From the NCBI GenBank assembly GCA_902826835.1, contig CADEGH010000001.1:290859-354858 (forward strand): 64,000 bases of DNA, given 5' to 3'. Position 1 is the stretch's first letter. Each line of letters starts with the position of its first letter. The notes under the pieces were generated by a model. That model was given only the letters and a program-made list of their open reading frames with translations. It was not told where the DNA came from and did no database searches. Source of the DNA: an uncultured bacterium. Its GTDB lineage: Bacteria; Planctomycetota; GCA-002687715. Shown here piece after piece: positions 4,727 to 63,806 of the stretch. A program made the translations under genes and the position numbers.

Positions 4727-7414
4727 TCAACGGCATTCCGCCAAGACGAGCATCAGGCGCTCGCGCCACGCACCCGGGGGGACGATCTCGAGGACCCGTT
4801 CGAGCTTGGCCGCAAAATCGAGCCGTTTGGCCGGGAACAACTTGATCGCGGCACTATCGTCCAACGCGGCCGCGACTCCCTCCAGCTCCCTCAGGAAAGA
4901 GAAATCCGAATCGCGAGGCAGCTCATCCTGCGGATGACCTTCCTCGGGAACAAACCGGCCAGAGAGTGTCACATCCGCCCACGAGGAATTGGCAATCTCG
5001 ACATAGACCTTGTCCTCATCCCCCCGGCGAATCGGAATCCGTACGTGGACTTGCGCCTGAATCGGCATCCCCTCCACCGCAACGGATTCGACTCCGCGGT
5101 CCAATCCAAACCAATGGAATTGGGTTTGCTGGCCCTTGACTTTCGGGTCCTCGAAGACATGAGCCAGCGGTCGGCCATTGACCCAGAGGGTGAATTCTCC
5201 ATGCCCGTTCGAATCACCCTTCACGTACGCCTGATAGGCAATTCTCTCGACGAGATAGACCCGTCCCTGCGGCACGAATCCTCCCGATGCACGCGCGGTA
5301 TGCCGGTCGTTGATGTCCGGAATCGCCCGCAAGTCCCGCGACTGACTCGCCTCGGAATCACCGTCGACGTTGGTCCTTCCACGGAGAGAGATGCGGTACC
5401 CGTTCCCACCCCCCGCTCCGCCATGAATCTGCAATCGCGCTACCGGAGACTCCATCCCGACCTGGTCCCGCTCCAAGGCCGCTCGGACGACCTTGGGGTC
5501 GGCAATTTTCACCCAGGAGAAGATCATCGACTCCCCGTGGACAATCTCCTCGGGGCGCATCAAGATCCACAGTTCCGAATCGCTGTCGGAGGTGTGAATC
5601 AAGAAGGTATGGCCTACCTTCGGGACCGCAGACTCGGCTCCTACCCCCGGATCCACGCGCCCGGCTCGGATACTGGCCCAGTCCACGGTGCCCAAGTCTC
5701 GAATGACGCTCACGTCGTCGACCACCATCCTCACGTCGATGGTGGCTAGTTCGCCTCCCGAACTGAGACAGAAGTCCCAGTCGTTGCGGGTCTTTTTCAC
5801 ATCGTCGCGGGTGGCATGTTCGAAGCTGTAAGTGGAGACGATGTAGCCCTCCGGGCTACCCATGGCACTGGCATAGTCGCGGTTGAGCACCGCCGACACC
5901 ATCACGTCTGGTCCATCCTTGGCACGGATTTCCGGAGTCAACGCGGCGGCACGCTGATCCAGTTCGGCCAGCCGACGGAAGAACGGACCGGTTCTTTCCC
6001 GATACTCTCGGTCCGCGGCTGCCGCCATCTCCGTTCCGAGGCGAGCCAGCGCCTGCGAATCGACTTCGATCCCATGACTGATAAGGTCGCCTCGACCATC
6101 CGTGAACTCCGGCCGCTCGGCTCGGTACGAGTAGCGAATGGTGATCGAATCGCGAGCCGATCCGCGCCGATTCTCTCCACGACGCACGATTGCCATCGCT
6201 ACCCAGCCTCCCTCCCTGACCTGGAGGAGAAATGCGTCGGAATGCGGCGTGCTACGGCCGGTGGCATTGGATCGCAAGCCGACGGACTCCGGTTCGGCGC
6301 GCACCACCGCCCGGGCGAGCGCGGCCGCAAACTTCAATTCGGGCAACGGCTCCGTGAAAACTTCGAGATTCGTGATGCGGCCGCCCGGCGTCGCGAGTGC
6401 GACAGTGCTGAGTCCACCGGCACTGGAACTGAATACGAGATCGGAGTTCTCCAGGTCCGCCGTCACTTCCTTGGTCGTGAATGAGTAGCCCTGATTACAG
6501 CAAAAAGAGAATTCTCCTTCGAAATCGAGCGAGTCGTTGGCCAGACCTTCGGGCCTCCTCGCGTCGAAGGCACGCGACTGGACCTCGACGCGGCCTTCGC
6601 GCGTCGGAACGGGACTGCCGGAAGCGGCATGTCGGCCTTCGACAGGCTCTGACGTGAGTAATGAGGCGGCGGTGGCCCCCTGATTGCCTGCACCGATGGA
6701 CGGAGTCTTGATTGACGACCCCGGGAGAGAAAGCAACCTCTCGCCGACGACCACACTTCCGACCGCCAACATCAGTGCCGCCGCACCCACCCACACCTTG
6801 GCGGCACTCGCCGTGACTCCCGCGGACGCGGATGTCGCGACCGTTGCCGCCAGCCCCGACTCCACGCCGGCAAACGCTGCCACCGACGAGACCCATGCCT
6901 CGCGGCGCCCACCATGCCGCTGATCCAAGTCGTGCCGGAGCCGTTCGAGGCCGCGCTTGGTCCGAGTCCGGATGGTCTCGACGGGCACTCCGGACTCCCG
7001 GGCAATCTCCGCCGCCTCTTTCCCCTCCACGTATCGCCGCCAGACCGCGGTGCGGTACGGCTCTTCCAGGCCTTTGACGGCCGCCAGGAGCTTCTCGTGG
7101 GTCTCCAGACTGGACGCGATATCGACGGGGTTCATAGGGGATTCGGCTCCGGCGACCTCGGCCTCGTGAGCACCGCGGCGCACCTGCGCGCGCCGCGCTT
7201 CCAGCGCCTTCTTGCGGACGACACCCTTGAGCCAGGCCCCCCAATGGCGGACCGAGCCCGACCTCTCCCGCAGGCCGAATAGCAGGGACTCCGAAACGAC
7301 GTCGTCGGGATCGACCCCGACACCGACGATGCGAGCCGCCAGCCGGCGAAGGCTGTCCAACCCGGACAAGTCCGGCAATTCACTCTTAGTATCGTTCAAC
7401 TTCCTGGTGTTCAT
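4727..7414 (-). CDS. ECF (group IV) sigma-70 factor fused to a transmembrane segment and a 650-aa C-terminal extracytoplasmic extension
   Basis: Region 2 (DPDDVVSESLLFGLRE...WLKGVVRKKALEARR) and region 4 HTH (EPYRTAVWRRYVEGKEAAEIARESGVPVETIRTRTKRGLERLR) lie in the first 180 aa. A hydrophobic Ala/Val-rich TM segment follows, then a long domain of unknown function. Confidence 0.7.
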   Translation of the reverse strand: MNTRKLNDTKSELPDLSGLDSLRRLAARIVGVGVDPDDVVSESLLFGLRERSGSVRHWGAWLKGVVRKKALEARRAQVRRGAHEAEVAGAESPMNPVDIASSLETHEKLLAAVKGLEEPYRTAVWRRYVEGKEAAEIARESGVPVETIRTRTKRGLERLRHDLDQRHGGRREAWVSSVAAFAGVESGLAATVATSASAGVTASAAKVWVGAAALMLAVGSVVVGERLLSLPGSSIKTPSIGAGNQGATAASLLTSEPVEGRHAASGSPVPTREGRVEVQSRAFDARRPEGLANDSLDFEGEFSFCCNQGYSFTTKEVTADLENSDLVFSSSAGGLSTVALATPGGRITNLEVFTEPLPELKFAAALARAVVRAEPESVGLRSNATGRSTPHSDAFLLQVREGGWVAMAIVRRGENRRGSARDSITIRYSYRAERPEFTDGRGDLISHGIEVDSQALARLGTEMAAAADREYRERTGPFFRRLAELDQRAAALTPEIRAKDGPDVMVSAVLNRDYASAMGSPEGYIVSTYSFEHATRDDVKKTRNDWDFCLSSGGELATIDVRMVVDDVSVIRDLGTVDWASIRAGRVDPGVGAESAVPKVGHTFLIHTSDSDSELWILMRPEEIVHGESMIFSWVKIADPKVVRAALERDQVGMESPVARLQIHGGAGGGNGYRISLRGRTNVDGDSEASQSRDLRAIPDINDRHTARASGGFVPQGRVYLVERIAYQAYVKGDSNGHGEFTLWVNGRPLAHVFEDPKVKGQQTQFHWFGLDRGVESVAVEGMPIQAQVHVRIPIRRGDEDKVYVEIANSSWADVTLSGRFVPEEGHPQDELPRDSDFSFLRELEGVAAALDDSAAIKLFPAKRLDFAAKLERVLEIVPPGAWRERLMLVLAECR

Positions 7415-7675: not shown

Positions 7676-9370
7676 TCAAAGGTCGAGTTCGAGTCGGAGG
7701 CGGGTCGTCATGTCTCCGAGGGCGACGTTGTTGATCACCGAGAATCCCTGCATGTACCACTCGGACTCATAGCCGGAGATGGCCGGATCGACCGTCCAAT
7801 TCCAGGTGTTGATGCCAGTGGGCGAAGAGCCGTTGAAGATCAAGGCGGTGTCGCCGGGATTAGAGAAGTCGACGAGGAAGTTCCCGTAACGCACCCGGAA
7901 GGTGTGCTGGTAGACCGGATCGGTGGAGTGCGTACTCCAGAGGTAGACTCCGCAGCGATCCGCCGGTCTCGTGGTCAGGGTCAATTGAATGGTCGCCGGC
8001 AAGCCGCCGCTGTGAATGGTCCCGAACGAGTCGATCGGACCGGACGCGAAGAAGTCGATCACCTCGACCTTGACTTCGTCGGCCCCGACATCGACGGCCG
8101 CGACTCCGTTCTTGTCGAAGTCGTCCATCCGGGGCCAGTTGAGATCGAACTCGTTGCCGAGATCGGCGCGCACCACGAAGGACGGGAGGGTGAGCGTGTT
8201 TCCCGGGACGACGTACCCGTTGACACCACGCTCGACGTTGGGGCTCGTGGTGAGGAGATGAAGGTCGGGACTCGTCGGGTTGGAATTCACGAACCCCGGA
8301 TTCGTCGTGTATTCCGATGCGACCGGGTTGGCAGAGACGTTGTTCGTGTCTCGAACCACGGTGACCGATGACGACTGGTTTTGAATGTCGGTCCCCGCCG
8401 GATTCCAGATGATGTTGTTGGCGATCGTGACGGTCTGTGGAGAAGATCCGTCGATCAGGATCCCGAACACGGATTGACCGAGACTGTGGGGCCGCCCGAA
8501 AGCGATGGTGTTGTTGACGATTCTGGTCTCACAATTGGTGGTTTGAATCTGAACTTCCGCCCCCCACAGCATGTTGGAGAACACCCGGGGTTGGGATGCT
8601 TCCGGGGCGGCGTAGTTGAAGCAGATCAAGTTGTACTCGTGTTCGATGAACTCGTTCGCCCGGAGCAAGGTCGAACTTTCCCCGCGGTTGATCAGAAGTA
8701 CGCCGCCGCTGACGTTGAATCCAAACAACCGGTTCTGTTCGATCACATGCCGGTCGCGCCATCCTTCGTTGGTATTCACTTGGATCGCCCACATGCACTC
8801 TCTCGTTGTGCAGCGACGGATTTCGACGGCCTCGGGGGTGGCGAGGGGCTGACTCCCAAACTGCCCGAGGTCCAACCGGATCGCCGCGCCGGCGAAGCCG
8901 TTGCGGATTTCTAGGCCCTGCAGAATCGAAGACGGGGTCGCCCCCGCCGGACCCGAGGCCACACCGGGATCCACGCAGAGCAAGACTTCACTGGAACCCT
9001 GGCCGTCGATCAGAACGCCGGGGGCATGGGCTTCCAGGCAGAGGCCTCGAGCCGGGAAGAAGATCGGAAAGAACTCCCCGAGGGCGCTGTCGTAGACACC
9101 GGGCATCACATTGACGGTCACCGGAATCCCCGCACTCAACGCTGCCGCGGCTTGGCCAAGGGCGTAGGTGATCGTCCGAAAGGGGGCGGCAAAGCTCCCG
9201 CCCGAAGGCACGTCGATTCCGGAGACGGCAGAGACGTAAAGACGAGATCCGCCGTCCCACGGTCCGAGCGCGCCTCCTTGAGCGAGCCCGGCGACCGCGA
9301 GGCAGAACAGACTGGCCGCAAGTCTTGGGCAGCGGCCGATTGGAACTGGAACTGCTTTCATGTTCTTCAC
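7676..9370 (-). CDS. secreted right-handed parallel beta-helix repeat protein (pectate-lyase-fold-like)
   Basis: N-terminal signal peptide (RLAASLFCLAVAGLAQGGA). Repeated NxxG / VxxN beta-helix-like segments, rich in Asn/Gly/Thr. The fold call is tentative. Confidence 0.55.
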   Translation of the reverse strand: MKNMKAVPVPIGRCPRLAASLFCLAVAGLAQGGALGPWDGGSRLYVSAVSGIDVPSGGSFAAPFRTITYALGQAAAALSAGIPVTVNVMPGVYDSALGEFFPIFFPARGLCLEAHAPGVLIDGQGSSEVLLCVDPGVASGPAGATPSSILQGLEIRNGFAGAAIRLDLGQFGSQPLATPEAVEIRRCTTRECMWAIQVNTNEGWRDRHVIEQNRLFGFNVSGGVLLINRGESSTLLRANEFIEHEYNLICFNYAAPEASQPRVFSNMLWGAEVQIQTTNCETRIVNNTIAFGRPHSLGQSVFGILIDGSSPQTVTIANNIIWNPAGTDIQNQSSSVTVVRDTNNVSANPVASEYTTNPGFVNSNPTSPDLHLLTTSPNVERGVNGYVVPGNTLTLPSFVVRADLGNEFDLNWPRMDDFDKNGVAAVDVGADEVKVEVIDFFASGPIDSFGTIHSGGLPATIQLTLTTRPADRCGVYLWSTHSTDPVYQHTFRVRYGNFLVDFSNPGDTALIFNGSSPTGINTWNWTVDPAISGYESEWYMQGFSVINNVALGDMTTRLRLELDL

Positions 9371-9738
9371 TACCTGGGTGGTTGAGAGGCCGGAAAGTCG
9401 ACCTCGTCCCCCTGGCGGAGCAAGCCCGCGGGTGTGTCTCGAAAAAACTCGCGGACGAAAAAGTCGGCGGCCAGAAAAATCCTCCTAAATCCGAGAAACA
9501 CCTGCCTCCCGTTGTCGCCATGGTCGCCGCTTTGGTTCGAACGAACGGCTCACGTCGAGCCGGTTTGAATCGCAACCACCACTTGACCAGGAGCGCAGCG
9601 TTGTCCGAAGTCGTCCACGGGAGCGGCCAAGACGAACTCATCGCTGCCGAACCGATCCTGGGGCCGAGCGCAGTACCAGCGCGGCACCGGACGTCGACGC
9701 GGTTCCGTGCGAGTCGGATCGGCTACGATCTCGTCTCC

Positions 9739-10392
9739 ATGGTCCCCCGCCCTGCCTCGAAAGACCTGGCCCTCGCCCGCCTCGGAGATCGGGAGGCGCT
9801 GGATCGGGTGCTGGCGCGCAATCACGAGCGATTCCTCCGCCTGGCCGACCACTGCCTGGGCGACCACCTCCGTGCGCTCGTTCGGCCAAGCGACTTGCTT
9901 CAAAGCGCTTACTTGGACGTCGTCAAGACGGTGGCTCGGTTCGACGGCGAATCCGAGGAAACCTTCGTCACGTGGGTAGCACGCATCCTCGAAAATACCG
10001 TTCGCGACAAACGCCGCTATTTCGACGCCGTGAAACGCAAGCGACTCGCGGATTCCGCGAAGCCGGAGCCCTTGAGCGAGATCACCGACCCTAAACAACC
10101 GACTCCGAGCCGCCAAATCACCGCCCGCGAGGATCTCGACGTCGTCGAGAAAGCCGCGGCCAACTTGCCCGAGGACTACCGGCGAATCCTCGACCTGTGC
10201 GTCCGCGATGCCATGACCCACGAAGAGGCGGCCGCGCGCATGGGCCGCACTCCGACCGCGACCCGCATCCTGCTCTCTCGAGCTCGGGCGGCTCTCGTGA
10301 CGGAAGTCTCCCGTCGCCGTCGCGACCTCGAGTCTCGACCATCCACCCTGCTGCCTCCCGGGGGGCTCGCGCCGCCTGGACTGGACCCATAG
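9739..10392 (+). CDS. ECF sigma-70 family RNA polymerase sigma factor
   Basis: Region 2 DLLQSAYLDVVKTVARFDGESEETFVTWVARILENTVRDKRR and region 4 LPEDYRRILDLCVRDAMTHEEAAARMGRTPTATRILLSRARAAL. The ATG at 9739 is in frame. The longer upstream ORF from a TTG at 9325 has no sigma-like sequence. Confidence 0.75.
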   Translation: MVPRPASKDLALARLGDREALDRVLARNHERFLRLADHCLGDHLRALVRPSDLLQSAYLDVVKTVARFDGESEETFVTWVARILENTVRDKRRYFDAVKRKRLADSAKPEPLSEITDPKQPTPSRQITAREDLDVVEKAAANLPEDYRRILDLCVRDAMTHEEAAARMGRTPTATRILLSRARAALVTEVSRRRRDLESRPSTLLPPGGLAPPGLDP

Positions 10393-10395: not shown

Positions 10396-11625
10396 ATGAT
10401 CACCCCTCACTTGAGCGCTTCCCGTGTCCTACTGCTTGCCCTGACCTTGCTGAGCTCAGCGATACCCCTCCCCGCGCAGGTTACGCCCGCGGGCGTCGAG
10501 TCGCCCTACGTCAACCTGACCATCGAACCCCGAGGACTTCTCAAGTGGGACGCCGTCGCATTGCACGTCGACGCGCGGCGGGGCGCTTGGGTCACGGTGT
10601 TTGCACGAGCGGTGCTTCCGATCGACTTGGTCGATGCGAGCACCTACGAGTCTTTCATCTCCCAGTATCCGTGGCTCGAGGATGCTTCGTGGACGCCGGA
10701 GTCCCTCAACCTCGCCCTCGCGGTGGCCGAGATACCCCCCACAAACCCCTTCACGACCGACGTCTCTCTCATCGATCCTCAGGATCTCGCTTCGCACTGG
10801 TCGAGTGTCGTCCAGGCGGATGGAGCCGAGCTGGTCCGCACCCGCGCGCAGCCGGTCCTGGGATCCACGCCTATCGGGGCTCTCCACCGTCGACCGTGGA
10901 GGGTCGACTGCGGCGCTTGGGACTACAGCCTGACCGGTTCAGCGCAGCCGATGCGAGAGACGTGGGCTTCTCGATTGGCGGGTGTCGAGTTGGGTTACGA
11001 CGATACGAACGGCACCTGGTTCTCGAACGAGCGGGTGCTCACGGAGTGTCTCATCGCGCAGTCCGGGAGCACCGAGGCGGCCCGGGAATTCCTGGAGCAC
11101 ACGGGTGGAATGCACTACGCAGTCGGCCTCGGGCTCTCCGTCGTGTATCAGGCCGTGGCCTATGAGGACCACCTCGGGCCTCCCTTCCCCTGGTACTCCG
11201 ACTTCACGGACGTCACGGTGCCCGGACTTCCAGGTCTTGCGGTCGCCGCCCCCGCGCCTCGCCCGCCGACGCCACGACTCAGCGGCGCTCGGCTGGTGAG
11301 ACCGACGGTCGGTGCGCCCGTTTCGGGCTCGAGCACGCCCGGCCCTCAACCCATCGAGGAGATCCTCTATGGGCCAACGGCCACCGTCAACGGAGACCTC
11401 GTGCTTCCCCTCCACGGGATGGCGGGGCCTTTCTCCTGTGTCATCAAGCATGGCACCCGCACGCGCTCCATCCCTGGCTTCTTTGCGGCCTCGGGTTCCG
11501 TGCGATTCCCCTTGCCTGCGCTCGTACCGGCGGGTGCGACCATTCAAATCCTCAGCGTCACCAACGCCTGGGGCACCACTTCCGGGGCGGGAATGCCGTG
11601 GGAGTGGGTGCTCGTCGGGCCCTGA
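10396..11625 (+). CDS. secreted hypothetical protein, starts 3 nt after the ECF sigma stop
   Basis: Signal peptide MITPHLSASRVLLLALTLLSSAIPLPAQ. No recognisable anti-sigma (ZAS/RskA) motif. Coding-like composition. Confidence 0.5.
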   Translation: MITPHLSASRVLLLALTLLSSAIPLPAQVTPAGVESPYVNLTIEPRGLLKWDAVALHVDARRGAWVTVFARAVLPIDLVDASTYESFISQYPWLEDASWTPESLNLALAVAEIPPTNPFTTDVSLIDPQDLASHWSSVVQADGAELVRTRAQPVLGSTPIGALHRRPWRVDCGAWDYSLTGSAQPMRETWASRLAGVELGYDDTNGTWFSNERVLTECLIAQSGSTEAAREFLEHTGGMHYAVGLGLSVVYQAVAYEDHLGPPFPWYSDFTDVTVPGLPGLAVAAPAPRPPTPRLSGARLVRPTVGAPVSGSSTPGPQPIEEILYGPTATVNGDLVLPLHGMAGPFSCVIKHGTRTRSIPGFFAASGSVRFPLPALVPAGATIQILSVTNAWGTTSGAGMPWEWVLVGP

Positions 11626-11640
11626 GCGTCTGCCTGCGGC

Positions 11641-14707: not shown

Positions 14708-17581
14708 TCAGAGATTGAGGGTGAGCACATTGGTGAGCGAAAACAGGCCGTTCGGGGCACTGGAATCCAGGACGGCGGCCTGGAAGTGGATGACGAGCCC
14801 CGCGAGGCCGGGGCCCGGCGGGACCGGAAGACTCTGGGCGGCTGACCCCGAGCCCGGCACCAGGGGATCTTCCCTAAGGAGTAGGGTGCCCGGGAACACG
14901 TAGTGCGGCGCTCCGAAGTCCAGATGCAGTTGGCAATTCGCCAAATTCACGGGCGTCCCCAGAGTCTGCAGCGAAGCCGCGAGTATGCAGGTGGCGCCGA
15001 TGGGTCCGCGCCCGATGCCGACTCCGAAGGCCGGAGAGGGCGCCACGGGTGACGGATTGAGCGCCACCAAGGTGGGATTCACTCCGCCTGGCCCGCAGGA
15101 GCCCGCGGGGCCAATCGCGGAGGTGGCCCCGAAGCCGCTTGCCGCCACGATGCGAAGTCGGCCGGCTCGCACGGAACTGCCTACGTTCGCCGACGGCTCG
15201 ACAACGATGCCCTCGGAAAATCCATCCCCGTCCATGTCGCGTACGCGCGTCAGGCCCACGGATGGTTCGATCGGAATTGGAATATTGTCGACGGCCTGGC
15301 CAGCACCCGTCCGACCATCGACAAGAATCTGCACCCTGGAGGCGTTGGGGTTGAAGTAGGCTACCGGTTGGTGAGGGTGTTGGGTGTGAATCAGGAAGTC
15401 TTTCACTCCATCGTTATTGCGGTCTCCCAATCCCGTCATCCATCCCGTGAACGGTGCATTGGGATATCTCCAGAGAATGGAGAGGTCCGCTCCCGAGACG
15501 GCAAATCGCACCAGGAACGGAAATCCCGCACTGGCTCCTTCGGCATACATCGCGAGTACAATCAGGTCCTCGACGCCATCACCGTTCAAGTCCTCCACGG
15601 CAGTCGGCAACTCGAAGAGTCGAATGATGTTCGTCGGACTCCTGGCAATCTCGTCGCCCGTCCGGGAACTCAGCCCGATCCAGGCCGGAACCTCGCAGTG
15701 CTCGATGAATTTGGGATCGCCGCACTCCAGGGTATTCACCCCGAGAATGCAGAAGTCCGATTGACCGTCCGCATCCAAATCACCCACTCGAACGAGCTTG
15801 GTGCCCGAACCGGTGGTCTCCCCCCTCCGCATCCAGACGGCCTGGCCAGTGGCCGTGGAGTACACCGCGAGATAGCTACGCGGAGGCACCGGCGCGTCCC
15901 AAATCCCCTCTCCGGGTGCTCCCACTGCCAAGTCGGTGAGGCCATCCCCGTCGACGTCACCGACTTCGGCCATGCCTCTTCCGAGGCCGGTCACTCCCAC
16001 CGGGGCCACGAGGGTTTGCAGGAGAGCGCCGGATGTCGCGTCGAACCAGTAAACCCGGCCGCGCCAATGGTAGTCGCCCAAGGGTCCGAAGTCGCCGAGA
16101 GGCGCACCGACGGCGATCACGGAGGGTGCTCCGCCCGAGACGGGCCGTTTGACACCGACAATGGAAGTCCCAAAGGAAATCGTCGCGTCAGGGCAATCCA
16201 AACGTCGCAGGAGTTGCAGGGTCGCCCCCGAGTAGACATGGACCGCGCCTCGCCCGCGGAAGCCGGGCTCGGCGACCAAGATTTCCGCGACTCCGTCTCC
16301 GTCGACGTCGAAGCACTCGTGGTTCAGGCCGAACTCGCCCCCGTGCCAAGTGTTGCGCCGCTCCCGAAGAACGGCCAGATTGGTCGAGGAAACGACGCAG
16401 ACCGCATTCATCTCCGCCAGGATCAGATCGGGTCGCCCATCTTGGTCTTGGTCTTCGGTCCAATCTCCGCCGCGCCAACCGGAAAAGTCGCGTGGAGCGG
16501 GTATTGACTGCCAGACCGAGTTGGTCGCCGGAGAGAATATCGACACCCGACAGGTTACGGTATCGTATGCGAAGGAAGTTTGGTAGACATTCCCAATCTC
16601 GAGGAGTTCGGGGCGCCCATCCCCGGTCAAGTCGGGCATCCACCGACACTGAGGTACCACGAGGCTTCCGGCGGGGTGAAGCACAGTCCGGACGATGGAC
16701 CACGTTGCCGTCGACACGAAAGCATATTGACCCAGTCCGGTAACTCCACTCCCCGGACTTCGCCAAATCGGGATTTCGGGGTGGCCGTCCCCGTCGATAT
16801 CCGCGCCGTAGCTCACTTCGTAGGCAAACGGGATGGGGAAAGAAACCGGCGATAGGACAAGTCCGGTGGCGCTGCTGATGATCTTGGACAACTGGTCGCC
16901 GTGCAGCAGAAAATCATCCCGTCCGTCGTTGTCTCGATCACGGATTCGATGCAACCGACCCGAATGTGGAAGCGGAGTGGAGTACAGCGTGCTGCCGTTG
17001 GATCCCCTCAAGACACGAAGCGTAGAGACATAAGAGGGATACTCCACCAACACAAAGGCGTACTCACTGATATTGTCTCCATCCAAGTGGAGATTGCCTT
17101 GCTGAATACCCAGGTCCAGAGGTTCAATGAACGTAAAGGGGTTCGTTGGCACAAATCCGTTGACGCGCCACAATTCCGTCCAGGCTACGGGATTCATCAA
17201 GATCAAGGTGCCGTCTTCCACCGTGTAGACTTCCCTGACTCCGTCCCCTGTCTGGTCCGGAAACGTCCCGAGCAGGTCCGGTGAAGCCGGGACCACACTC
17301 AGGCTGGCCAGGGTGCGACCATCGACGCTGTGCAATTCCGTGACGCCAAGACCGCTCGTGAGCGGGTTTCGAAATGCGACAAAATCGGTCACCCCGTCCG
17401 AGTTGATATCGCCGACTCGCATCAACGATCGAGTCGGACTCTGACCAGCCCCTTCCGTACCCGCAAGCTCGGCCACGGTTTGGTACTGCGCTGGAGCATG
17501 GAGGGAAAGCAAGCACGCGCCTGAGATGAGGGCGAGCGCACCCACAAGACACCGTCCACACTCGATCAATCGCAGGATCAT
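14708..17581 (-). CDS. secreted FG-GAP / integrin-alpha-like beta-propeller repeat protein
   Basis: Signal peptide. More than 8 repeats of the Ca-binding DxDGDG motif (VGDINSDGVTDFV, DIDGDGHPE, DVDGDGVAEILVAEPGF, VGDVDGDGLTDLAVGAPGEG, DLNGDGVEDLIV, DMDGDGFSEGIV). Confidence 0.75.
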   Translation of the reverse strand: MILRLIECGRCLVGALALISGACLLSLHAPAQYQTVAELAGTEGAGQSPTRSLMRVGDINSDGVTDFVAFRNPLTSGLGVTELHSVDGRTLASLSVVPASPDLLGTFPDQTGDGVREVYTVEDGTLILMNPVAWTELWRVNGFVPTNPFTFIEPLDLGIQQGNLHLDGDNISEYAFVLVEYPSYVSTLRVLRGSNGSTLYSTPLPHSGRLHRIRDRDNDGRDDFLLHGDQLSKIISSATGLVLSPVSFPIPFAYEVSYGADIDGDGHPEIPIWRSPGSGVTGLGQYAFVSTATWSIVRTVLHPAGSLVVPQCRWMPDLTGDGRPELLEIGNVYQTSFAYDTVTCRVSIFSPATNSVWQSIPAPRDFSGWRGGDWTEDQDQDGRPDLILAEMNAVCVVSSTNLAVLRERRNTWHGGEFGLNHECFDVDGDGVAEILVAEPGFRGRGAVHVYSGATLQLLRRLDCPDATISFGTSIVGVKRPVSGGAPSVIAVGAPLGDFGPLGDYHWRGRVYWFDATSGALLQTLVAPVGVTGLGRGMAEVGDVDGDGLTDLAVGAPGEGIWDAPVPPRSYLAVYSTATGQAVWMRRGETTGSGTKLVRVGDLDADGQSDFCILGVNTLECGDPKFIEHCEVPAWIGLSSRTGDEIARSPTNIIRLFELPTAVEDLNGDGVEDLIVLAMYAEGASAGFPFLVRFAVSGADLSILWRYPNAPFTGWMTGLGDRNNDGVKDFLIHTQHPHQPVAYFNPNASRVQILVDGRTGAGQAVDNIPIPIEPSVGLTRVRDMDGDGFSEGIVVEPSANVGSSVRAGRLRIVAASGFGATSAIGPAGSCGPGGVNPTLVALNPSPVAPSPAFGVGIGRGPIGATCILAASLQTLGTPVNLANCQLHLDFGAPHYVFPGTLLLREDPLVPGSGSAAQSLPVPPGPGLAGLVIHFQAAVLDSSAPNGLFSLTNVLTLNL

Positions 17582-17652
17582 CGTAGAACCTCCGGTCAGT
17601 CGAGAGCATCATAGGGCCCCGGAGGTCGAACCGGCAAGCCGCCGAGCTCGCC

Positions 17653-17702
17653 GGACTTCAGTTTCCCATCCGAGGTCATACCGGCCGACGGTTACCGGCC
17701 CG
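17653..17702 (+). repeat. copy A of conserved 50-nt non-coding motif (GGACTTCaGTTTCCCAtCCGAGgTCATACCGGCCGACGGTTACCGGCCCG)
   Basis: 47 of 50 nt identical to 21756-21805. Contains the internal direct repeat TACCGGCC-N6-TACCGGCC. Confidence 0.7.
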
Positions 17703-17716
17703 CTGACGCGGAGAGT

Positions 17717-18070
17717 CCCTTCCTGGACTGGAGCCTCTGGTGGGAGGCGAATCAATTTCACTCTTGTTGCCGGGAGCGAGCTCGCATCGCGGATTCGGCT
17801 GAAACCAACCGACCGAGGGACCTCTCGGACCTCTCGAGTCGCACCGCGATCTTGGCAGCGCTGCGGTTAGCCCTGGAGGACGAGTACTACGACACCCGTC
17901 CAGCAGGCCACACTCCCAAGTCGGTGACCGCCTACTCCCCTATCCACCGCACCGACCTCGCGAACCGCGGAGTCACAAAACGGCTCAGCTTCGAGCAGGC
18001 CAGCGAGGATTCGATCGCAGCCCGGAGAGGCTCTTGGGGTTCTCTCGACGAGACAAATCCCAGAAAGTGA
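17717..18070 (+). pseudogene. truncated remnant/paralog of the 5' part of the HEAT-repeat gene at 22043-23839 (no start codon, no signal peptide)
   Basis: In-frame translation PFLDWSLWWEANQ...TAILAALRLALEDEYYDTR parallels HEAT protein residues 75-135 (PFLDWDYWWDHNQ...PEILAALSLALRDEYYDTR). The frame is open from 17615 but has no ATG/GTG/TTG before 17852. It diverges after DTR and stops at 18070. Confidence 0.5.
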
Positions 18071-18151: not shown

Positions 18152-21100
18152 ATGCAGAGTGCCCGCCGCCATTGCTTCGCAGTCCTCCTTCTCTGCGCAG
18201 CCGCTTCGGCGCAGGCACCGACCGAAGTCCCCCCGGGATTTGTGCTGGTCGATGACATGGTTCTTCCGGAGTCTGCCGTGTTTGGCGAGTCCGGCTTCAC
18301 TCCGAACAACTGGCCGATCGGCCTCGTCCCCTACGCCTTTGCCGCCAACGTTACGATGGCCAACCAAACCCTGGCGCTCACCGCGATGGCCGAGGTCGAA
18401 GCGATCACCGCGGTCGACTTCATACCCCGTAACAACCAGGCCGACTACGTTCTCATCACGGCATCTACGGTCAACAATTCCGGCGTGGGGGTCATCGGCG
18501 GAGCCCAAGTGCTCAACATCGTCAGTTGGGGTTCGAAGTTCATCATCGTGCACGAGCTCATGCACGCACTGGGCTTTGTCCACGAGCAGTCTCGCCCCGA
18601 CCGCGGCACTTACGTCACCGTCAACTCCGCCAACGTCAGCACGACTGCGTGCACTGGTTCGAACTGCGGGATGGTCGGGAGTTCGACCTGCATCTGCAAT
18701 TTCGACATCGTGAACATCGCGACGTCGTTCGGCGCCTACGATTTCCGCTCGGTCATGCACTACGGCCGCAGCGCGTTCAGCGCCAACGGGGCGGACACCC
18801 TCACCTGCAACAGCGGATACACTCAATTCCAGTCCGTGATCGGGCAGCGCGCCTACCTCTCACTGGGCGACGCCGCCGGCCTGCAATTCAAATATGGAGC
18901 GGCAATCGCTCCGGCCGTGACTTCGATCTCCCCGACCATGGCGGTCGCCGGGGGCAGCGGTTTCACCCTCGCGGTGAACGGAGTGCGTTTCTGCGGAGGC
19001 AGCGCCGATGCGAATGGAGTTCCCGGCACGCAGGTACTCTGGAACGGAACCGCGATCTCGACTTGGCAATCCGGACCGACCCAGGTGTCGGCGCTCGTAC
19101 CCGGTGCACTCCTCAGCGTTCCCGGGACGGCGACGGTCACGGTGCGCAACCCCGCCCCCGGTGGAGGACTCGGCTCCGGCGCGCAGACCTTCACGATCAC
19201 CTGTCCGCCCATTGCTGGCATCACTCTTTCCCCCTCCGTTCCGCAGGCCGTGGTGCCAGCGTGCGTCCCTGTCGCCATCCCGCCCGTGCCCCTCACCAAC
19301 TTCGACTGGCACGTGGTTGCCGTTTCTTCTCCCTCCGATTGGCGCCTGAGCATGGGCGCAACCACTTCGAACAACGCGGGCAGCGTCTGTGATTTCCTGG
19401 CGGGAGATGCCTACGTCTCGCCGGGCCAGTCCGTGAACCCGGTCTCGGGATCCGTGTCCCGCGTGGGAGGCTCGGACAATGCGACGGTGGAGTATGTGAC
19501 CTCCGCCGCGCTCACCGTGAACACACCGTCCATCTCAGGGATTCCCGCCGGCTCGATCGTACGAGCATTTCGATTCTTCGCCGGCACGGGCCCGCTCCAG
19601 CTTCACGTCTCCGGGTCGAGTTCCTTGCGATGGTGGCTGGTTTCTCCCACCGCGACCTTCTCCTGGCGAGGGCCCGCCAATGCAGTGGCGAGCGGGATCG
19701 TCGGCGCCGGAGCTGTCTCCATTCCCACCGGGTCATTCTGCCTCGTGGTTGGCCGAAGCGGAGGAGCCTCGACTGGCTTCGAGGCGTTCACCGTGAATCT
19801 CTGTCAGTCCGCGCCACCACCGTTCACCCTCGGGGCGGGTTTTCTTCAATATCTCGGGGGCCCCTGCCACCCGTTTCAGTTCACCCCCCAGTCCGGTCGT
19901 TGGAATGTCGTCGGAGTGTCGTCGACCGTGGATTGGGATATCGGCGTCGGGAGCGGTCGTTCCGAGTTCGGCGGTAGCAGTTGCGACTACGTTCTCGCCA
20001 ACGGTCGTCTGGGCACCGTCACTCCGGGGTCCGGCATGCTCGCTCGTTACTCTGGCACAGCCCAGGGTGCAGCGATGATGCCAATCACCGTAGCCGCCAG
20101 TTTTCCCGGTGGTTCAGCCCAAGCCTCGACCTTTCTGATGGCCGCGTTCGAATTCGAAGTTCTGACCGCGGCGGTCTATGACCTCGCGATCAGCGGAGGG
20201 ATGGGCCATCTGTGGGACTTGCACAGTCCGGGGGGCGATGCCAGTTGGAGAGGTCGGCCTAGTGCGGACATTCTGAGTGGCCAGGCCACGACCGGAGTCC
20301 CCGCCGTAGGAGTTCCTCTGGGCGTCGGCTGGCATGTCGCCGTCGTCTATCGGAATGGTGGGCCGATCGCGGCTTCGACGCTCACCTTCACCTCGTCGGT
20401 CTCTGCGATCACCGCGCCGACGCTCGTCAGCGTGTCTCCCCCCTCGGCCCTCACGCAAGCACCGAGTTTCACGCTGCTCGTGCAAGGCACGGGCTTCGAC
20501 GTGAACTCGTTCATCTGGTTCGACGGCAACTACCTCCCGACGACCTTCCTGAGTGCGACGATGCTCTCCGCCACGGTCGACGCGTCGCTGCTTCAATCTC
20601 CTCGGATCGTCCCCGTCGTCGTAATGAAACCTGGTCCCGCCGCGAACATCCCGTCCAACGCCTTGACCTTTACGATCAACGCTCTGCCGCCCACGCTCAG
20701 TCAGCTCTCTCCGGCGAGTGCGCTCTCCGGGAACCCGGCTTTCACCCTGAACGTCAACGGGGCGTCCTTCGCGGCGAGCTCGGTCGTACGGTGGAACGGC
20801 GCTCCCCTCACCACCACCTTCGTGAGTGCGACTCAACTCCAAGCCGAGGTCCCCTCATCGCTACTCCAGGCGGCCGCCGGGGCGGCCGTGACCGTCTTCA
20901 ATCCTCCCCCGAACGGGGGTTCCTCCAATTCACTGAACTTCAACGTGCTTCGTCCCGGCATCCTGGCGATTTCGCCAAACTTGATCCCCATTCTCGTGCC
21001 CGCGAGCCCTGGCAGTCTGCTCACGATCATCGGGCAGAATTTCGGTCCGCAGTCGATCGTGCACGCAGACGGGGAGGCGATCCCCACCACCTTGGTCAAT

Positions 21101-21637: not shown

Positions 21638-21755
21638 CCTTTCCCGTGCTGAGGAGGACCCCGCTCAGGTTCGCCAGGGTTCGACCGTCCAGCGTGTGCA
21701 ATTCGGGCGCACCCGGACCGCGCAATGGTCGAACTGGCGATCCGCGGATTACGTA

Positions 21756-21805
21756 GGACTTCGGTTTCCCACCCGAGATCATACCGGCCGACGGTTACCG
21801 GCCCG
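21756..21805 (+). repeat. copy B of conserved 50-nt non-coding motif, about 240 nt upstream of the HEAT-repeat gene
   Basis: 94% identical to 17653-17702. It is followed, as in copy A, by TGACGC. Confidence 0.7.
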
Positions 21806-22042
21806 TGACGCAAACGGGAACATTGGGCCCGGCCATCGGCTCCTTCACGGCACGGCAATCCGGAGTTTCGAGTTGAGAATCTCGACTGGATTTCGTCTGG
21901 AAATCGCCCTTGCAGCGGGCATTCCGGGCTCTCGATTGCGGCCACGGCGGTGATTCCGGCCCTGGAGTTGCAGTCCAACGGCTGACCAAGCCGTCGCTCA
22001 GGTCGGATGTGAATTCCAGGACGATCCCGAGGAGTAGCCGCG

Positions 22043-23839
22043 GTGAGCTTTCTACGTTTAGTCGCGATCTTGGTGTCCGTCGCGGGCTTCGCCGGGGCGG
22101 TACTCGCCCATGGCGGGGAGTACCTCGGCCCAAGCGGAAATGCCCCCCAATTAGGTCCAATAAGGCCGGGCCTCAGTCATCCAACTGATCCGGACCCGGG
22201 CGGGTCGCGAATCCGCCCGACACCCCCGCGTGACCGCATCAGAAGGCATCTACATAGGGGAGATCCGTTCCTGGACTGGGACTACTGGTGGGACCACAAT
22301 CAGCTTCGCTTCATCTGCCGGGAACTAACCTGCGCCCCAGGATCTACCGAGGCCATCCGCTCGCGCCCCTTCCGGGACCCGAGCAACCGCCCCGAGATCC
22401 TCGCGGCGCTGAGCTTAGCCCTCCGGGACGAGTACTACGACACTCGTGCCGCGGCGGTCATTGCCTACGGCAAGGTTGCGGATCCAGCGGATCCCGAGGC
22501 ACTCGCAATGTTGCGCCGATTCCTCGGTGATGAGGACAAGATTGTCCAAGAATCGACCTGTTTGGGACTCGGCATCCTCGGCAACAAGGCCGCGGTGCCC
22601 GACCTCCTCGAGATCGCGAAGAACACCCCGAAGGGCCGAAAGCTCGTCGGGACCGACACGAGCGACGTGCCCACCCGCACCCGCTCCTTCGCGAGCGTCG
22701 CGATCGGCCTCATCGGCGCCCGTGAGGGCTTCGTGGGCGACGAGGCCAACGTTCTCAACGAACTGGCGGACCTCGCCAAGATCGACGCGGCTCACATCGA
22801 CATCCAGATGGGACCGGCGATCGCCCTCCAACTCGTCAAGAGCGAGAAGGTGGCGCAGGACATCCTCGCGATCTACAAGGACACCAAAGCGAAGCGTCAC
22901 GTCCGTGCCCACCTCGCGGTGGCGCTCGGCAAGATCGGCTACCGCGCGGCGATCCAAGACCTCCGCGCCGGTCTCCGCGACAAGGAGACCTACGTGAACT
23001 ACGGCTCCGCGATCTCCCTCGGTCTTCTCGCGAACAAGGAAGACAAGGACATCATCAAGGAGCTCGTGAATTACGGAAAGCGCGCCCCCAACCTGGGCAC
23101 GAAGAACTTCGCCATCATGGCGCTCGGCGAAATCGGCGACGAGTCCGGTCGAGCCACCCTGATGGAGTTCGTGAAGGGCGGACAGCTCGCGGAGAAGACC
23201 TTCGCGGCGCTCGGTCTCGGAGTCATGGGCACCAAGAATCCCAGCACCTCCGAAGAGAGCGGCCAGTTGATCCTCGAGAGCTACAAGGCCGCCAAGAACG
23301 ACCCCGAGCGGTCGGCCTTCGCGATCGGTCTCGGGATTCTGGGCCACCGTTCCGCCGCCCCCACGCTGCGGGAGGATCTGCAGCGCGACTCGGGCTCGAA
23401 CAAGAAGCGGGGGTACCTTTGCCTCGCGCTTGGCCTGCTCGGAGATCTGGAGAGCAGGCCGATCCTCGAAGAATTGGTGGCTCGAAACACCGACTGGGAG
23501 CTACGACAGCAGGCGGCCATCGGGCTCGGTCTGATCAGGGACGAGCGCTCCCTCCGGGTGCTCGAGCAAGTCATTTTGAAGCCTATGAACGGCGCCGGTT
23601 TGATGGGTGCCGCCGCAATGGCCATCGGCAACCTCAGCCCTGCGCTGGTGATGCCCATACTCTCCAACATCATCGAAAACCGGGACCGTGCCTTCTACGA
23701 CAGTTCAAGAGCCTACGCGACCGCGGCCCTCGGCATCCTCGGCGACAAAGACGACTTCCCCGTCCTCGACCGTATCCGCGAAAACACCAACTACCTCGCC
23801 AGTTCCGAAGCACTCGAAGAGCTGCTTCGGATTCTGTGA
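22043..23839 (+). CDS. HEAT-repeat (PBS-lyase-type) protein with N-terminal signal/anchor sequence
   Basis: GTG start preceded by GAGGAG. N-terminal hydrophobic LRLVAILVSVAGFAGAVLA. Repeated HEAT-like units (RAAAVIAYGKV..DPEALAML, VQESTCLGLGILG, RAHLAVALGKIG, ...). Confidence 0.7.
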   Translation: MSFLRLVAILVSVAGFAGAVLAHGGEYLGPSGNAPQLGPIRPGLSHPTDPDPGGSRIRPTPPRDRIRRHLHRGDPFLDWDYWWDHNQLRFICRELTCAPGSTEAIRSRPFRDPSNRPEILAALSLALRDEYYDTRAAAVIAYGKVADPADPEALAMLRRFLGDEDKIVQESTCLGLGILGNKAAVPDLLEIAKNTPKGRKLVGTDTSDVPTRTRSFASVAIGLIGAREGFVGDEANVLNELADLAKIDAAHIDIQMGPAIALQLVKSEKVAQDILAIYKDTKAKRHVRAHLAVALGKIGYRAAIQDLRAGLRDKETYVNYGSAISLGLLANKEDKDIIKELVNYGKRAPNLGTKNFAIMALGEIGDESGRATLMEFVKGGQLAEKTFAALGLGVMGTKNPSTSEESGQLILESYKAAKNDPERSAFAIGLGILGHRSAAPTLREDLQRDSGSNKKRGYLCLALGLLGDLESRPILEELVARNTDWELRQQAAIGLGLIRDERSLRVLEQVILKPMNGAGLMGAAAMAIGNLSPALVMPILSNIIENRDRAFYDSSRAYATAALGILGDKDDFPVLDRIRENTNYLASSEALEELLRIL

Positions 23840-23886
23840 ACGAAAGGCATCGAGAGCCTGACATGCGACGTTGATACGATCTCCGA

Positions 23887-24405
23887 GTGTTCCAAGCGAC
23901 CTTGTTTCCGGAACCCGATCGCCTCGTGCTCGCGCCGGAAGACCGAGGCGACATCGAGGAGTTCCAAGGTATGGTGAGGGAGCTTGCCTCGAGACGCGAT
24001 CTCACCAGCGATCAGGCCCGATGGGTGGGGCGGTTTGCCACGTACATCGAACGGCTGCCCCTCGCTCCCCCCATCGCCGAAGTCACTCTGCGCATTTCCG
24101 ATTCGAGCGAATCAGTCGGGGCAGTGAGGACCATCAGCCTCTCTCGAGATTCCCTGGTGTTGAGCTCCGAAATCGGCCGCCCCTCCTCCGGATCGACTAC
24201 CCTTCGCGAGCGTCACACGACCCTCGTCGCGTCTATGGCTGGCCGAGTGTGCGACTCTCGTGCCGAACTCGCGGATTGGCTGGGGGTGCTCCGCACTCTC
24301 ATCCGCGGCGACCACGTCACCCTGCACTGTTCCCCCGCCCATCCGCCTCCGCCCCCTCCCGATCTCCCCTCCCACCATGCCGTCCAAGACTGGTGGTCCG
24401 CCTGA
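23887..24405 (+). CDS. hypothetical protein (Pro-rich C-terminus)
   Basis: 172-aa ORF with protein-like composition and high GC3. No recognisable motif. An alternative overlapping frame (23871-24452) exists. Confidence 0.3.
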   Translation: MFQATLFPEPDRLVLAPEDRGDIEEFQGMVRELASRRDLTSDQARWVGRFATYIERLPLAPPIAEVTLRISDSSESVGAVRTISLSRDSLVLSSEIGRPSSGSTTLRERHTTLVASMAGRVCDSRAELADWLGVLRTLIRGDHVTLHCSPAHPPPPPPDLPSHHAVQDWWSA

Positions 24406-24601
24406 CCACTCCCCCCGTGAATGCACCGCCCGCTTCTCGAACCCGCTCCTAAGCCCCACACCGGAGCCGTCCATCCTTCCCCTTCGAACCAGTCCGAGCC
24501 ATCTCCAGACCCACCCCGCGCCCACAATTCCTGGCAACAACTTGCCATCTCCAGGAAATCCGGGCGCGCCTGCAAGCACAAAAAAGCCTATAAAAATAGA
24601 G

Positions 24602-24674
24602 TGGGACCGTCGGGGATCGAACCCGAGACCTGCGGATTAAAAGTCCGATGCTCTACCGGCTGAGCTACGGTCCC
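24602..24674 (-). tRNA. tRNA-Lys (anticodon UUU)
   Basis: The reverse complement folds as GGGACCG-TA-GCTC-AGCCGGTA-GAGC-A-TCGGA-CTTTTAA-TCCGC-AGGTC-TCGGG-TTCGATC-CCCGA-CGGTCCC-A. Anticodon TTT at positions 34-36. The T-loop is TTCGATC. A T-rich tract (ctatttttataggcttttttgtg) follows the 3' end. Confidence 0.85.
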
Positions 24675-24718
24675 AAAGGGGGCCCCATGGTGACAAAGGG
24701 AGGGGCCGGGGCGAAGGA

Positions 24719-25285
24719 TCAGATTTTCGTGATCTCTTCGGTCTTCTTCTTCAGAAGCTCGTCGATCTTGGCCTCGTGTTGTTTGGTGAGGTCCGTGATC
24801 TTGGTTTCGAGGTCACGGGCCTGATCCTCGGTGAGCTTGCCGCCTTTGTGGGCGACCTGGGATTCTTTGTTGCCGTCGCGGCGGACGTTGCGCACGGCGA
24901 TGCGCTGCTGTTCGGCCACTTCCTTGGCGTGGTGCGCGAGCTTCTTGCGCTGCTCCTCGGTGAGCATGGGGACGGGCAGACGAATCATCTTGCCGTCGCT
25001 TTGAGGAGTGATCCCGACGTTGGAGGCGAGGATGGCCTTTTCGATCGCGGGCACGAGCGTCTGGTCAAACGGCTTGAGCACGATGGTCTTGCCGTCTTGG
25101 ACCGAGACCTGCGCGACCTGGGCAATCGGGGTCATCGACCCGTAGTAGTCGACACGGATGTGGTCGACGAGGCCCGGAGTCGCGCGGCCGGTGCGGATGC
25201 CCTTCAAGTCCTGCTCGAGGCGGGCCACCGCCTTCACCATGCGATCCTTCGACTCGTTGAGGATGCCGTTGAAGCTTTGTTCCAT
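24719..25285 (-). CDS. frr: ribosome recycling factor
   Basis: 188-aa protein MEQSFNGILNESKDRMVKAVARLEQDLKGIRTGRATPGLVDHIRVDYYGSMTPIAQVAQVSV... is a typical Frr. ATG at 25283-25285 on the minus strand. Confidence 0.9.
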   Translation of the reverse strand: MEQSFNGILNESKDRMVKAVARLEQDLKGIRTGRATPGLVDHIRVDYYGSMTPIAQVAQVSVQDGKTIVLKPFDQTLVPAIEKAILASNVGITPQSDGKMIRLPVPMLTEEQRKKLAHHAKEVAEQQRIAVRNVRRDGNKESQVAHKGGKLTEDQARDLETKITDLTKQHEAKIDELLKKKTEEITKI

Positions 25286-25308
25286 GGGAGCCTTCTTCTT
25301 CGGGGCGG

Positions 25309-26903
<1,595 letters not shown>

Positions 26904-26966
26904 GGATAGGACTCCGCATCAGGGGCGCGCTCACGCACGCCCACATTCTGACTGGAAAGAAAAACC

Positions 26967-27872: not shown

Positions 27873-28095
27873 CTTCGAGGACTCCCGGTGAGCGGCTCAT
27901 CGGCGGAGCACCTTGAGGCAGGCGTCCGAGCATCACCAAAGGGAAATGCGGTTCGAACGGAGCGACCATCGCCCCCCTGGAACCGGCGCGGAATCTAACC
28001 CTGGGCCCGGCCGAGGCAAGGGTCGCCGCCCCGACCCCTCCTGGCCCGAACTCGGGCGAGAAGTCGTTCGCAGCGACCCTGTTAGGTTCGCCCCG

Positions 28096-62501: not shown

Positions 62502-63806
62502 TCAGGGGTTCCAAAATAGGAAGGTGACGCGGCGCAACATGGAGTCGGAGGGGCTCGAATCCGCCTTCCGTTCTTCCGCGATGGAGCGGATGCGCAGCCC
62601 GGGAGTCGACTCGAGGTCGCCGATGAGCTTGCGGGCCATAGGCTCGGCCAACACCGCTGATCGGCCAGCGGAGAGCACGTTACTTGCCTGGCTCGGCGAG
62701 TGCGCAGACGGGCTCTGAGGTTGGCTCAGAACCTGAAAACCGAGGGCCGTTTGGAGTTCGGCCAGGCGGCTTGAGCCTCTCTCTCCTTCCACGAGGAAGA
62801 CGGTGGAAATGGGCGGCGAGAAACCTGCCCCGGGAGTCGCTCCCCGTCCACCCGCCTGAAGTTCCAGGGATTTGGCCGGGGGGGCACCTTGGGAATCGGC
62901 GGTAGCCGGGGGAGCGATGAAGCTGTAATTGAGGCTCGCACTGAACGCCGAGGGCAACGTGGTGCCGACCTCGGTCGCGCTGACCACGGCGGTTGTGAGG
63001 AATTCGGACGACCAGGGAACGACCCGCTGGAGCTGATCGGTCACGTTGGCCCGCGGCTGGAGCGCCGCCATGGCTCGATCCAAAGTCACCAGAGTGACCG
63101 AGCGCCTTACCTTCGCATCCCCGTCGTCTAGGGTCTGGAAAGCGTAGTAGAGACTTGGGGCCGGCGCCGTTTCGGGCGCGACCGCCCCGATCACCAGGGC
63201 CTCGTTCGAGAGTTCCTCTCTTGGGGTAGGCAGCCCTGCCGAACCGTCCGGGTCGGCCCGGGGTTCGCTTGGCTTGGCCGATGGGGCCGGCGCCGGTGAC
63301 GCCGGGGTCATCTTCCCCCCCAAAAATCCGGTCGGCCGCGATTCGTCCGATTTGGGCTGACTTGCCGCCTGGGCTGACAAGTCGGACTCGCCCTTGACTC
63401 CGCGGCCGGACTCTGGGCCAGGCAGGGAGCGGGTCTCTTTCCAGAGTATCGAGGCCGCGAGGGCGCTCGTGAGCAACAGCGCCGCCGCGCGTGCCCACCC
63501 GAGCTTTTGCAAATGGGACCAGGCCGACGCCGCCGGCGGTTCGCTCGGCAGGCCGACTCTCGGCGGAGTGGGCGCGGCCTCCACATCCTTCCGCACCCGA
63601 TCACGCAGGTCGGCAGGGGCGGAGCCGATGCCGAGACGAAGCATCTTGGTGCGCACTTCCGCAAGCGTCTCGAAAGTGCCCCGACACTCGTCGCAGGCAC
63701 CACAATGCGCCAAGAATTGTGCGTGCTCGGCGGTCGTGAGCGTCCCGTCGACCGCGTCGACCAGGAGCGAGGACCAAGCATGGCAATCGCGGTCGGATCT
63801 CATCAC
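62502..63806 (-). CDS. membrane-spanning anti-sigma factor with N-terminal zinc-binding (ZAS-type) domain
   Basis: HAQFLAHCGACDECR (HxxxCxxC) ZAS motif and TM helix AAALLLTSALAASILW. The GTG start overlaps the stop of the upstream ECF sigma gene (GTGA). Confidence 0.7.
   Translation of the reverse strand: MMRSDRDCHAWSSLLVDAVDGTLTTAEHAQFLAHCGACDECRGTFETLAEVRTKMLRLGIGSAPADLRDRVRKDVEAAPTPPRVGLPSEPPAASAWSHLQKLGWARAAALLLTSALAASILWKETRSLPGPESGRGVKGESDLSAQAASQPKSDESRPTGFLGGKMTPASPAPAPSAKPSEPRADPDGSAGLPTPREELSNEALVIGAVAPETAPAPSLYYAFQTLDDGDAKVRRSVTLVTLDRAMAALQPRANVTDQLQRVVPWSSEFLTTAVVSATEVGTTLPSAFSASLNYSFIAPPATADSQGAPPAKSLELQAGGRGATPGAGFSPPISTVFLVEGERGSSRLAELQTALGFQVLSQPQSPSAHSPSQASNVLSAGRSAVLAEPMARKLIGDLESTPGLRIRSIAEERKADSSPSDSMLRRVTFLFWNP

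Follow-up and report, generated by a model that had tools for sequence, protein, structure and literature searches.

A near-identical 50-nt tract within a decayed duplication of an FG-GAP/HEAT intergenic region, and its likely homogenisation by gene conversion

Two copies of a 50-nt intergenic motif, which lie on either side of an astacin peptidase gene and are called copy A and copy B here, are far more similar to each other than the co-duplicated sequences next to them. We analysed this pair in the window (the whole 64-kb stretch of DNA under study) and in four closely related strain assemblies. On balance, we lean towards the explanation that the motif is the core of a decayed, duplicated intergenic relic between an FG-GAP gene and a HEAT gene, and that its near-identity derives from recent short-tract gene conversion. 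The repeat is real and most likely has this ordinary explanation, with an operator maintained by selection as the main rival.

Two copies of an intergenic element in a decayed duplication

The coordinates and counts of the motif in the first-pass annotation were correct on recount. Copies A and B are identical at 47 of 50 positions; the three differences are at motif positions 8, 17 and 23, and the final 27 nt are without any difference. Self-comparison of the window showed that the similarity reaches slightly past the motif, giving an extended element with 85% identity between the copies (Table 1). The coding segment that was duplicated together with it, on the HEAT side, has drifted to 67.2% identity over 195 nt, as had been claimed. 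A second co-linear piece, in the FG-GAP coding region on the minus strand, had been missed and is 74% identical between the copies. The offsets of the three co-linear pieces are 4366 (the 74% piece), 4103 (the 85% piece) and 4549 (the 67% piece). At its left edge, the tract of near-identity ends at a 7-nt block adjoining the motif that shows no similarity between the copies (GCTCGCC vs TTACGTA), and at its right edge it ends at a fixed 1-nt indel.

We compared the motif with its aligned A/B flanks. When the motif was left out, 206 of the 296 aligned flanking positions (70%) were identical. At a divergence of 31%, the binomial probability of three or fewer differences in 50 nt is 1.8e-5, and an equally good 50-column window was obtained in 7e-4 of 200,000 permutations in which the columns of the A/B alignment were shuffled. 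The claim that the motif is better conserved than its flanks (67-74%) holds after alignment, and its excess identity over the co-duplicated flanks is real. Because the excess is real, either constraint or gene conversion must apply. The first-pass annotation had offered these two causes and had chosen constraint, whereas the evidence described below favours gene conversion.

Table 1. Features of the duplicated region and candidate regulatory genes in the window
Feature	Position	Strand	Remarks
ECF-type sigma factor (895-aa protein with sigma-70 region 4)	4727..7414
ECF-type sigma factor	9325..10392
409-aa protein without Pfam match	10396..11625
Ser/Thr kinase, 930 aa	11641..14433
FG-GAP repeat protein gene, 957 aa, signal-peptide-like N-terminus	14708..17581	-	divergent from copy A
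Segment within the live FG-GAP gene, about codons 76-97 (...ELHSVDGRTLASLSVV...)	17290..17355	-	counterpart of the copy B relic
Sigma-70-like promoter match for FG-GAP, TTGCCG-18-TATGAT	17608..17637	-	consensus match only
Extended shared element, copy A, 86 nt	17624..17709	.	85% identity to 21727-21811
Motif copy A, 50 nt	17653..17702	.	variants in strains L018, L019, L020
HEAT gene 5' relic, copy A	17710..17904	+	67.2% identity to 22259-22452
Astacin (M12A) peptidase gene with IPT/TIG domains, 1161 aa	18152..21637	+	sole gene between the copies
FG-GAP 5' coding relic, copy B (...ELHTLDGRTLANLSGV...)	21656..21721	-	74% identical to 17290-17355
Extended shared element, copy B, 85 nt	21727..21811	.	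without one C after CCCG
Motif copy B, 50 nt	21756..21805	.	variants in strains L009, L019
HEAT-repeat protein gene, 598-aa form	22043..23839	+	downstream of motif copy B
Counterpart of the HEAT relic in the live HEAT gene, codons 73-137	22259..22452	+
zf-HC2 protein	62502..63806

The pieces common to the two copies translate to matching FG-GAP and HEAT peptides. The FG-GAP relic of copy B, which lies left of the motif on the minus strand, encodes ELHTLDGRTLANLSGV, the counterpart of ELHSVDGRTLASLSVV close to the N-terminus of FG-GAP. Between this relic and the motif element, copy B has lost about 263 nt, among them the FG-GAP start and the -10 box. In copy A, the HEAT relic follows directly after the motif element as a single open frame without a start codon (ESPFLDWSLWW...ILAALRLALEDEYYDTR), in which ESPFLDWSLWWEANQ...ILAALRLALEDEYYDTR matches GDPFLDWDYWWDHNQ...ILAALSLALRDEYYDTR of the live HEAT protein; copy A has no equivalent of 21812-22258, and the relic is for this reason joined directly to the motif element. 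The layout is an intact FG-GAP gene, the element and a HEAT relic, then the astacin gene, then an FG-GAP relic, the element and an intact HEAT gene. The element of about 86 nt is the only intergenic piece kept in both halves of the duplication. The astacin gene itself contains an internal tandem repeat of about 260 nt (20336-20595 vs 20609-20868, 62% identity), which corresponds to repeated IPT/TIG-type domains.

From this architecture, the following history may be proposed. The ancestral state would have been a single intergenic region between a divergent FG-GAP gene (minus strand) and HEAT gene (plus strand). A segmental duplication of some age, spanning at least 1.06 kb, now brackets the astacin/TIG peptidase gene; it may go back to a tandem duplication followed by an insertion, or to an insertion of Campbell type. 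Each half has decayed on one side, copy A by loss of the HEAT start and about 447 nt and copy B by loss of the stretch with the FG-GAP start. Short-tract, non-reciprocal homologous recombination between the direct repeats, which are 4.1 kb apart, would then have copied about 50-60 nt from one to the other, at about the time when the sampled strains last shared an ancestor.

Within the motif, copy A reads in order as an imperfect inverted repeat, GACTTCAG-N8-CCGAGGTC, followed by the direct repeat TACCGGCC-GACGGT-TACCGGCC; the direct repeat had been recognised in the first pass and is present in copies A and B. The 8-mer TACCGGCC occurs five times in the window against 1.0 expected, and four of the five occurrences are inside the two motifs. 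The distances to the neighbouring genes had also been given properly: copy A is 72-121 nt upstream of the FG-GAP ATG, and both copies are upstream of plus-strand genes, with the astacin start 450 nt from copy A and the HEAT start 238 nt from copy B. A promoter scan gave a single sigma-70-like match, on the minus strand at copy A, and no plus-strand match near either copy. The -35 of this predicted FG-GAP promoter falls within the left 22 nt of the extended element, so placed that the motif in copy A would be at about -52 to -101 of the presumed start site. In strain L019 the predicted -10 reads CATGGT. The equivalent region of copy B has a changed -35 and has lost the -10.

Variation of the motif among related strains

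Protein look-ups led us to four closely related strain assemblies, from which we obtained copy A (L018 and L020), copy B (L009) or both copies (L019). All four have the same architecture as the window, so that the duplication is present in five assemblies, and they are 96.7-97.9% identical to the window; L009 reaches only 89% overall because its HEAT 3' module differs. At about position 17978, between the HEAT relic and the start of the astacin gene, the window is without 10 nt (GAATCGCATC) that are present in L018, L019 and L020, which confirms that this spacer is non-coding.

In copy A, the window has A8 and T27, and L018, L019 and L020 have G8 and A27. In copy B, the window has C17 and A23, L019 has C17, and L009 has none of these changes. 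Two of the three A/B differences noticed in the first pass are private to the window assembly, and the variants point to an identity of 49-50 out of 50 between copies A and B at the common ancestor of the strains. Copy B of L009 carries the copy-A state at position 17, which makes this position the lone candidate for a shared polymorphism among sites that are too few for a tree.

As a neutral yardstick, we used the fourfold-degenerate sites in the genes flanking the motif copies, of which 59/752, 16/243, 17/244 and 5/94 were variable among the strains (5.3-7.8%); dS between the window and L019 was 0.07-0.085. The whole intergenic regions were variable at 5.8% (A) and 4.0% (B) of sites, and the motif at 2 of 50 sites in each copy set. 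The motif substitutions among strains amount to four in 100 nt, against about six expected from the fourfold sites if the motif were neutral; on these small numbers, the motif has changed between strains at an approximately neutral rate. If constraint had been strong enough to keep 50/50 identity while about 30% of the flank sites changed, about 0.5 changes in the motif would be expected. The flanks have about 90 A/B differences and 25 polymorphic sites and the motif has 0-1 and 3-4, respectively, and an HKA-like contrast calculated by hand from these counts gave p ~0.005-0.05, depending on the polarisation of position 17. The argument from polymorphism consists of four substitutions, two of which are singletons of the window assembly, while the others come from metagenome assemblies, one at 2.7x coverage.

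The near-identity of the paralogues together with ordinary polymorphism among strains indicates recent homogenisation rather than long-term purifying selection, and gene conversion, not selection, is most likely the source of the near-identity. As is typical of gene conversion, the tract is discrete and far more similar between the paralogues than the flanking paralogous DNA, and, within the small numbers available, its paralogue divergence does not exceed the strain divergence and its substitution is not suppressed. Concerted evolution and recombination are also visible independently at this locus: HEAT alleles or paralogues that share only about 50-60% identity in their N-terminal and C-terminal modules are 97-100% identical over a central stretch of ~720 nt. 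Conversion between the motif copies would be inefficient, since the homology that it needs in the flanks is short and diverged. If the element was homogenised in this way, it need not have a function in copy B, and in copy A, upstream of the predicted FG-GAP promoter, it may or may not contribute to that promoter; conversion and function are not mutually exclusive.

The changes are unevenly placed along the motif. All four are within the left 27 nt. The right 23 nt (ACCGGCCGACGGTTACCGGCCCG) do not vary in any of the 7 copies, where about 2.9 changes would be expected under neutrality (P ~0.055), and this would agree with some constraint on that part. In three of four strains (L018, L019 and L020), T27A converts half-site 1 of copy A from TACCGGCC to AACCGGCC; the second TACCGGCC half-site is invariant among the strains. 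The 8-bp inverted repeat (hairpin) is disrupted by G8A and likewise by G23A.

Regulatory, mobile-element and RNA explanations

The explanation that survives best beside gene conversion, although we judge it unlikely, is a cis-regulatory operator for a transcription factor, with tandem TACCGGCC half-sites, possibly together with the inverted repeat, which purifying selection would have kept for the FG-GAP gene divergent from copy A, the astacin gene downstream of copy A and the HEAT gene downstream of copy B. Such a shared upstream element would be predicted to persist, and the motif element is indeed the sole part of the ancestral intergenic region kept in both copies despite the independent deletions of 263 and 447 nt. 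Copy A is just upstream of the FG-GAP promoter match, an exact direct repeat of 8 nt is unusual by chance, and the right-hand 23 nt have not changed in any copy. However, the approximately neutral rate of substitution between strains speaks against purifying selection, and T27A alters half-site 1 in precisely the copy that adjoins the only predicted promoter. The minus-strand promoter at copy B is destroyed, and the promoter scan gave no plus-strand match near either copy.

The first-pass annotation had proposed a tandem-site operator for a winged-helix response regulator. Sites of winged-helix (OmpR/PhoB-type) response regulators are typically direct repeats about 10-11 bp centre to centre. 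Here the period is 14 bp, the half-sites are centred at about -81 and -95 from the presumed start, half-site 1 is mutated in most strains, and no response-regulator gene was found among the approximately 36 ORFs of the window that were scanned. The spacing and the half-site conservation do not agree with an OmpR/PhoB-type operator, but another kind of factor might bind the motif. A regulatory role of the invariant right-hand 23 nt is possible but unsupported. We regard as improbable a narrower proposal in which the invariant core (ACCGGCCGACGGTTACCGGCCCG with the upstream T/A; tandem TACCGGCC 14 bp apart) would be a genuine operator that coordinates secreted or surface proteins (FG-GAP, astacin/TIG and HEAT) through some regulator, for instance a factor working with the neighbouring ECF sigma/Ser-Thr kinase module, with conversion riding on top of constraint. 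The cluster beside the FG-GAP gene (4727-14433) consists of the two sigma-factor proteins, the 409-aa protein and the kinase listed in Table 1, and these proteins are possible candidates for regulators of the FG-GAP/astacin/HEAT island.

Searches for further copies also speak against the operator, as far as the sequences covered reach. The 22-nt direct-repeat core with up to 3 mismatches was found only in copies A and B in the 64-kb window (0 expected), a degenerate tandem pattern gave no third site there, and an nhmmer profile of the 86-nt element gave no third copy in the window or in related loci. Scans of two sequence collections, neither of which includes the source genome, yielded chance matches: in the genome collection the 20-mer core matched only two orthologous Streptomyces loci, and the 19-mer core had seven matches in the metagenome collection, all of them with unrelated flanks. 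Across the window, the related loci and the collections, the motif was found in its two known places only. The match in Streptomyces spp. extends to 23 exact nucleotides of the motif core (ATACCGGCCGACGGTTACCGGCC; L001, 3455-3477, and L002, 4801-4823) and lies between the terminator of hpf (S30AE) and a NarL/LuxR-type response-regulator gene; though longer than the 20-mer query, it is probably a chance match, its flanks being unrelated.

Nothing similar to the motif was found upstream of canonical HEAT orthologues either. The orthologues examined (L003, L005, L007 and L010) adjoin NAD synthase. A MAFFT alignment suggested some resemblance between the motif and their upstream regions, but the local-alignment scores were the same as those of shuffled motifs. 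For FG-GAP, the nearest homologue outside the same species is 27% identical.

A small mobile or recombination element, either a MITE/REP-like insert or an att-like core (attL/attR) left by integration of an astacin cassette, would account for near-identical direct repeats that bracket a single-gene segment of 4 kb and for the sharp edges of identity, with the unrelated block on the left and the indel on the right. We consider such an origin very unlikely. To the left and right of the motif, the similarity goes on into diverged gene fragments whose order and orientation are the same in the two copies, and the repeat is therefore part of a larger duplication rather than an insertion. Moreover, only two copies were found across everything searched, no terminal inverted repeats or target-site duplication were seen by eye, and no integrase, transposase or recombinase gene is between or beside the copies.

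We also consider it very unlikely that the motif is a structured RNA, whether an sRNA or a leader element, or that it belongs to a small conserved ORF: the ancestral sequence can form an 8-bp hairpin (GACUUCGG-N8-CCGAGGUC) and a 5-bp hairpin, but folding energies were no better than those of shuffles (z -0.59 to +1.32 for both strands of both copies), the covariation analysis that had been proposed earlier found 0 covarying pairs and 2 of 4 substitutions that break the stem, and Rfam had no match at gathering threshold or at E <= 10 except for a meaningless 8-bit snoRNA match; similarly, the three A/B differences of the window are in one codon phase and are synonymous in one plus frame and one minus frame, but this coincidence has a 1/9 chance, T27A is non-synonymous in that minus frame, non-synonymous changes also fall in other frames, and the ORFs crossing the motif differ in starts, stops and lengths (27, 50 and 114 aa in copy A; 75, 119 and 27 aa in copy B).

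Recombination at the locus and comparison with known systems

The HEAT gene is a mosaic of three modules (window 22043-23839; L009, 663-2459; L010, 10001-11935). There are two N-terminal types, the 598-aa form of the window and a canonical Gly-rich form of 644 aa, and likewise two C-terminal types; the types within each pair have the low identity given above, and the shared, nearly identical centre is at about 22565-23285. All four combinations of N-terminal and C-terminal modules exist (P0001, P0002, P0121 and P0122). These mosaics look like reciprocal recombinants between two paralogues, produced by inversion or translocation; alternatively, they could be assembly chimeras across the shared centre. 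The sequence of L010 (GCA_902825955.1, CADECZ010000005.1) is 95.7% identical to window 22565-33838, a stretch that begins within the HEAT gene and runs to the right over rrf, pyrH, tsf, rpsB, lpxB and onwards. To the left it is entirely different, with NAD synthase in place of the astacin and FG-GAP genes; for all of the left 22.5 kb of the window, the genomic context in that relative is therefore another one.

Differences among the strains are concentrated near the N-terminus of the 598-aa HEAT form (22195-22262 and 22316-22373), with 33-36 differences in the first 558 nt. In this module only 5 of 94 fourfold sites vary and the differences are mostly amino-acid-changing, which suggests relaxed or diversifying selection.

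Several other features of the window were recorded. The ORF for ribosome recycling factor (RRF) at 24719-25723 on the minus strand has 334 aa, with the RRF domain only in residues 169-331, and the gene of a relative has 188 aa; the true start is likely further downstream within the ORF. A tRNA gene (24602-24674, minus strand) is just past the stop codon of this ORF, and a divergent pair of tRNA genes is at 42430-42501 (minus strand) and 42645-42716 (plus strand). Two proteins have FGE-sulfatase domains (61-3504, minus strand, and 57956-59605, plus strand), one of which is fused to a NACHT/STAND NTPase (1147 aa).

The locus calls for some caution, in that an island of high identity in duplicated intergenic DNA mimics a conserved regulatory site; the comparison of paralogue divergence with strain polymorphism made recent homogenisation the more likely cause here. 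With its mosaic HEAT genes, the locus is also an example of paralogous recombination at work in reshaping this genome. If the regulatory explanation were true, the motif would offer a first approach to how transcription is controlled in a species-specific island of surface or secreted proteins in an uncultured lineage, which would be of modest and local interest.

In comparison with OmpR/PhoB-type operators, the motif shares the two identical 8-nt direct repeats in an intergenic position upstream of a predicted promoter. In contrast to these operators, its repeats have a 14-bp rather than a 10-11-bp period and are centred far from the -35 (about -81 and -95) instead of next to or over it; neither a cognate regulator gene nor other sites were found in the 64 kb, and one half-site is mutated in most strains. 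The motif region also resembles the junctions of Campbell-type insertions or tandem duplications, in which direct repeats are left around an inserted gene: the astacin gene is flanked left and right by at least 1 kb that comprises the FG-GAP 5' end, the intergenic region and the HEAT 5' end, and on each side only the outward-facing gene is intact. Unlike such junctions, the repeats here are old (about 30% diverged), are internally deleted and are without mobile-element genes.

Short-tract conversion between bacterial duplicates is exemplified by rRNA operons, the tuf genes and the PE/PPE and ESX paralogues of Mycobacterium tuberculosis. Unlike in these cases of concerted evolution, the tract here is non-coding and is in a decayed duplicate of a divergent promoter region, its flanking homology is very short and poor, and conversion is inferred from a single tract with four informative substitutions. 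As in these cases, a discrete tract of near-identity is embedded in diverged paralogous DNA, and the age at which the paralogues coalesce is about that of the strains and not that of the duplication. The size of the motif tract, 50-86 nt, is also of the order of the conversion tracts of M. tuberculosis, another high-GC bacterium, which have a median of 101 bp (PMC13061034).
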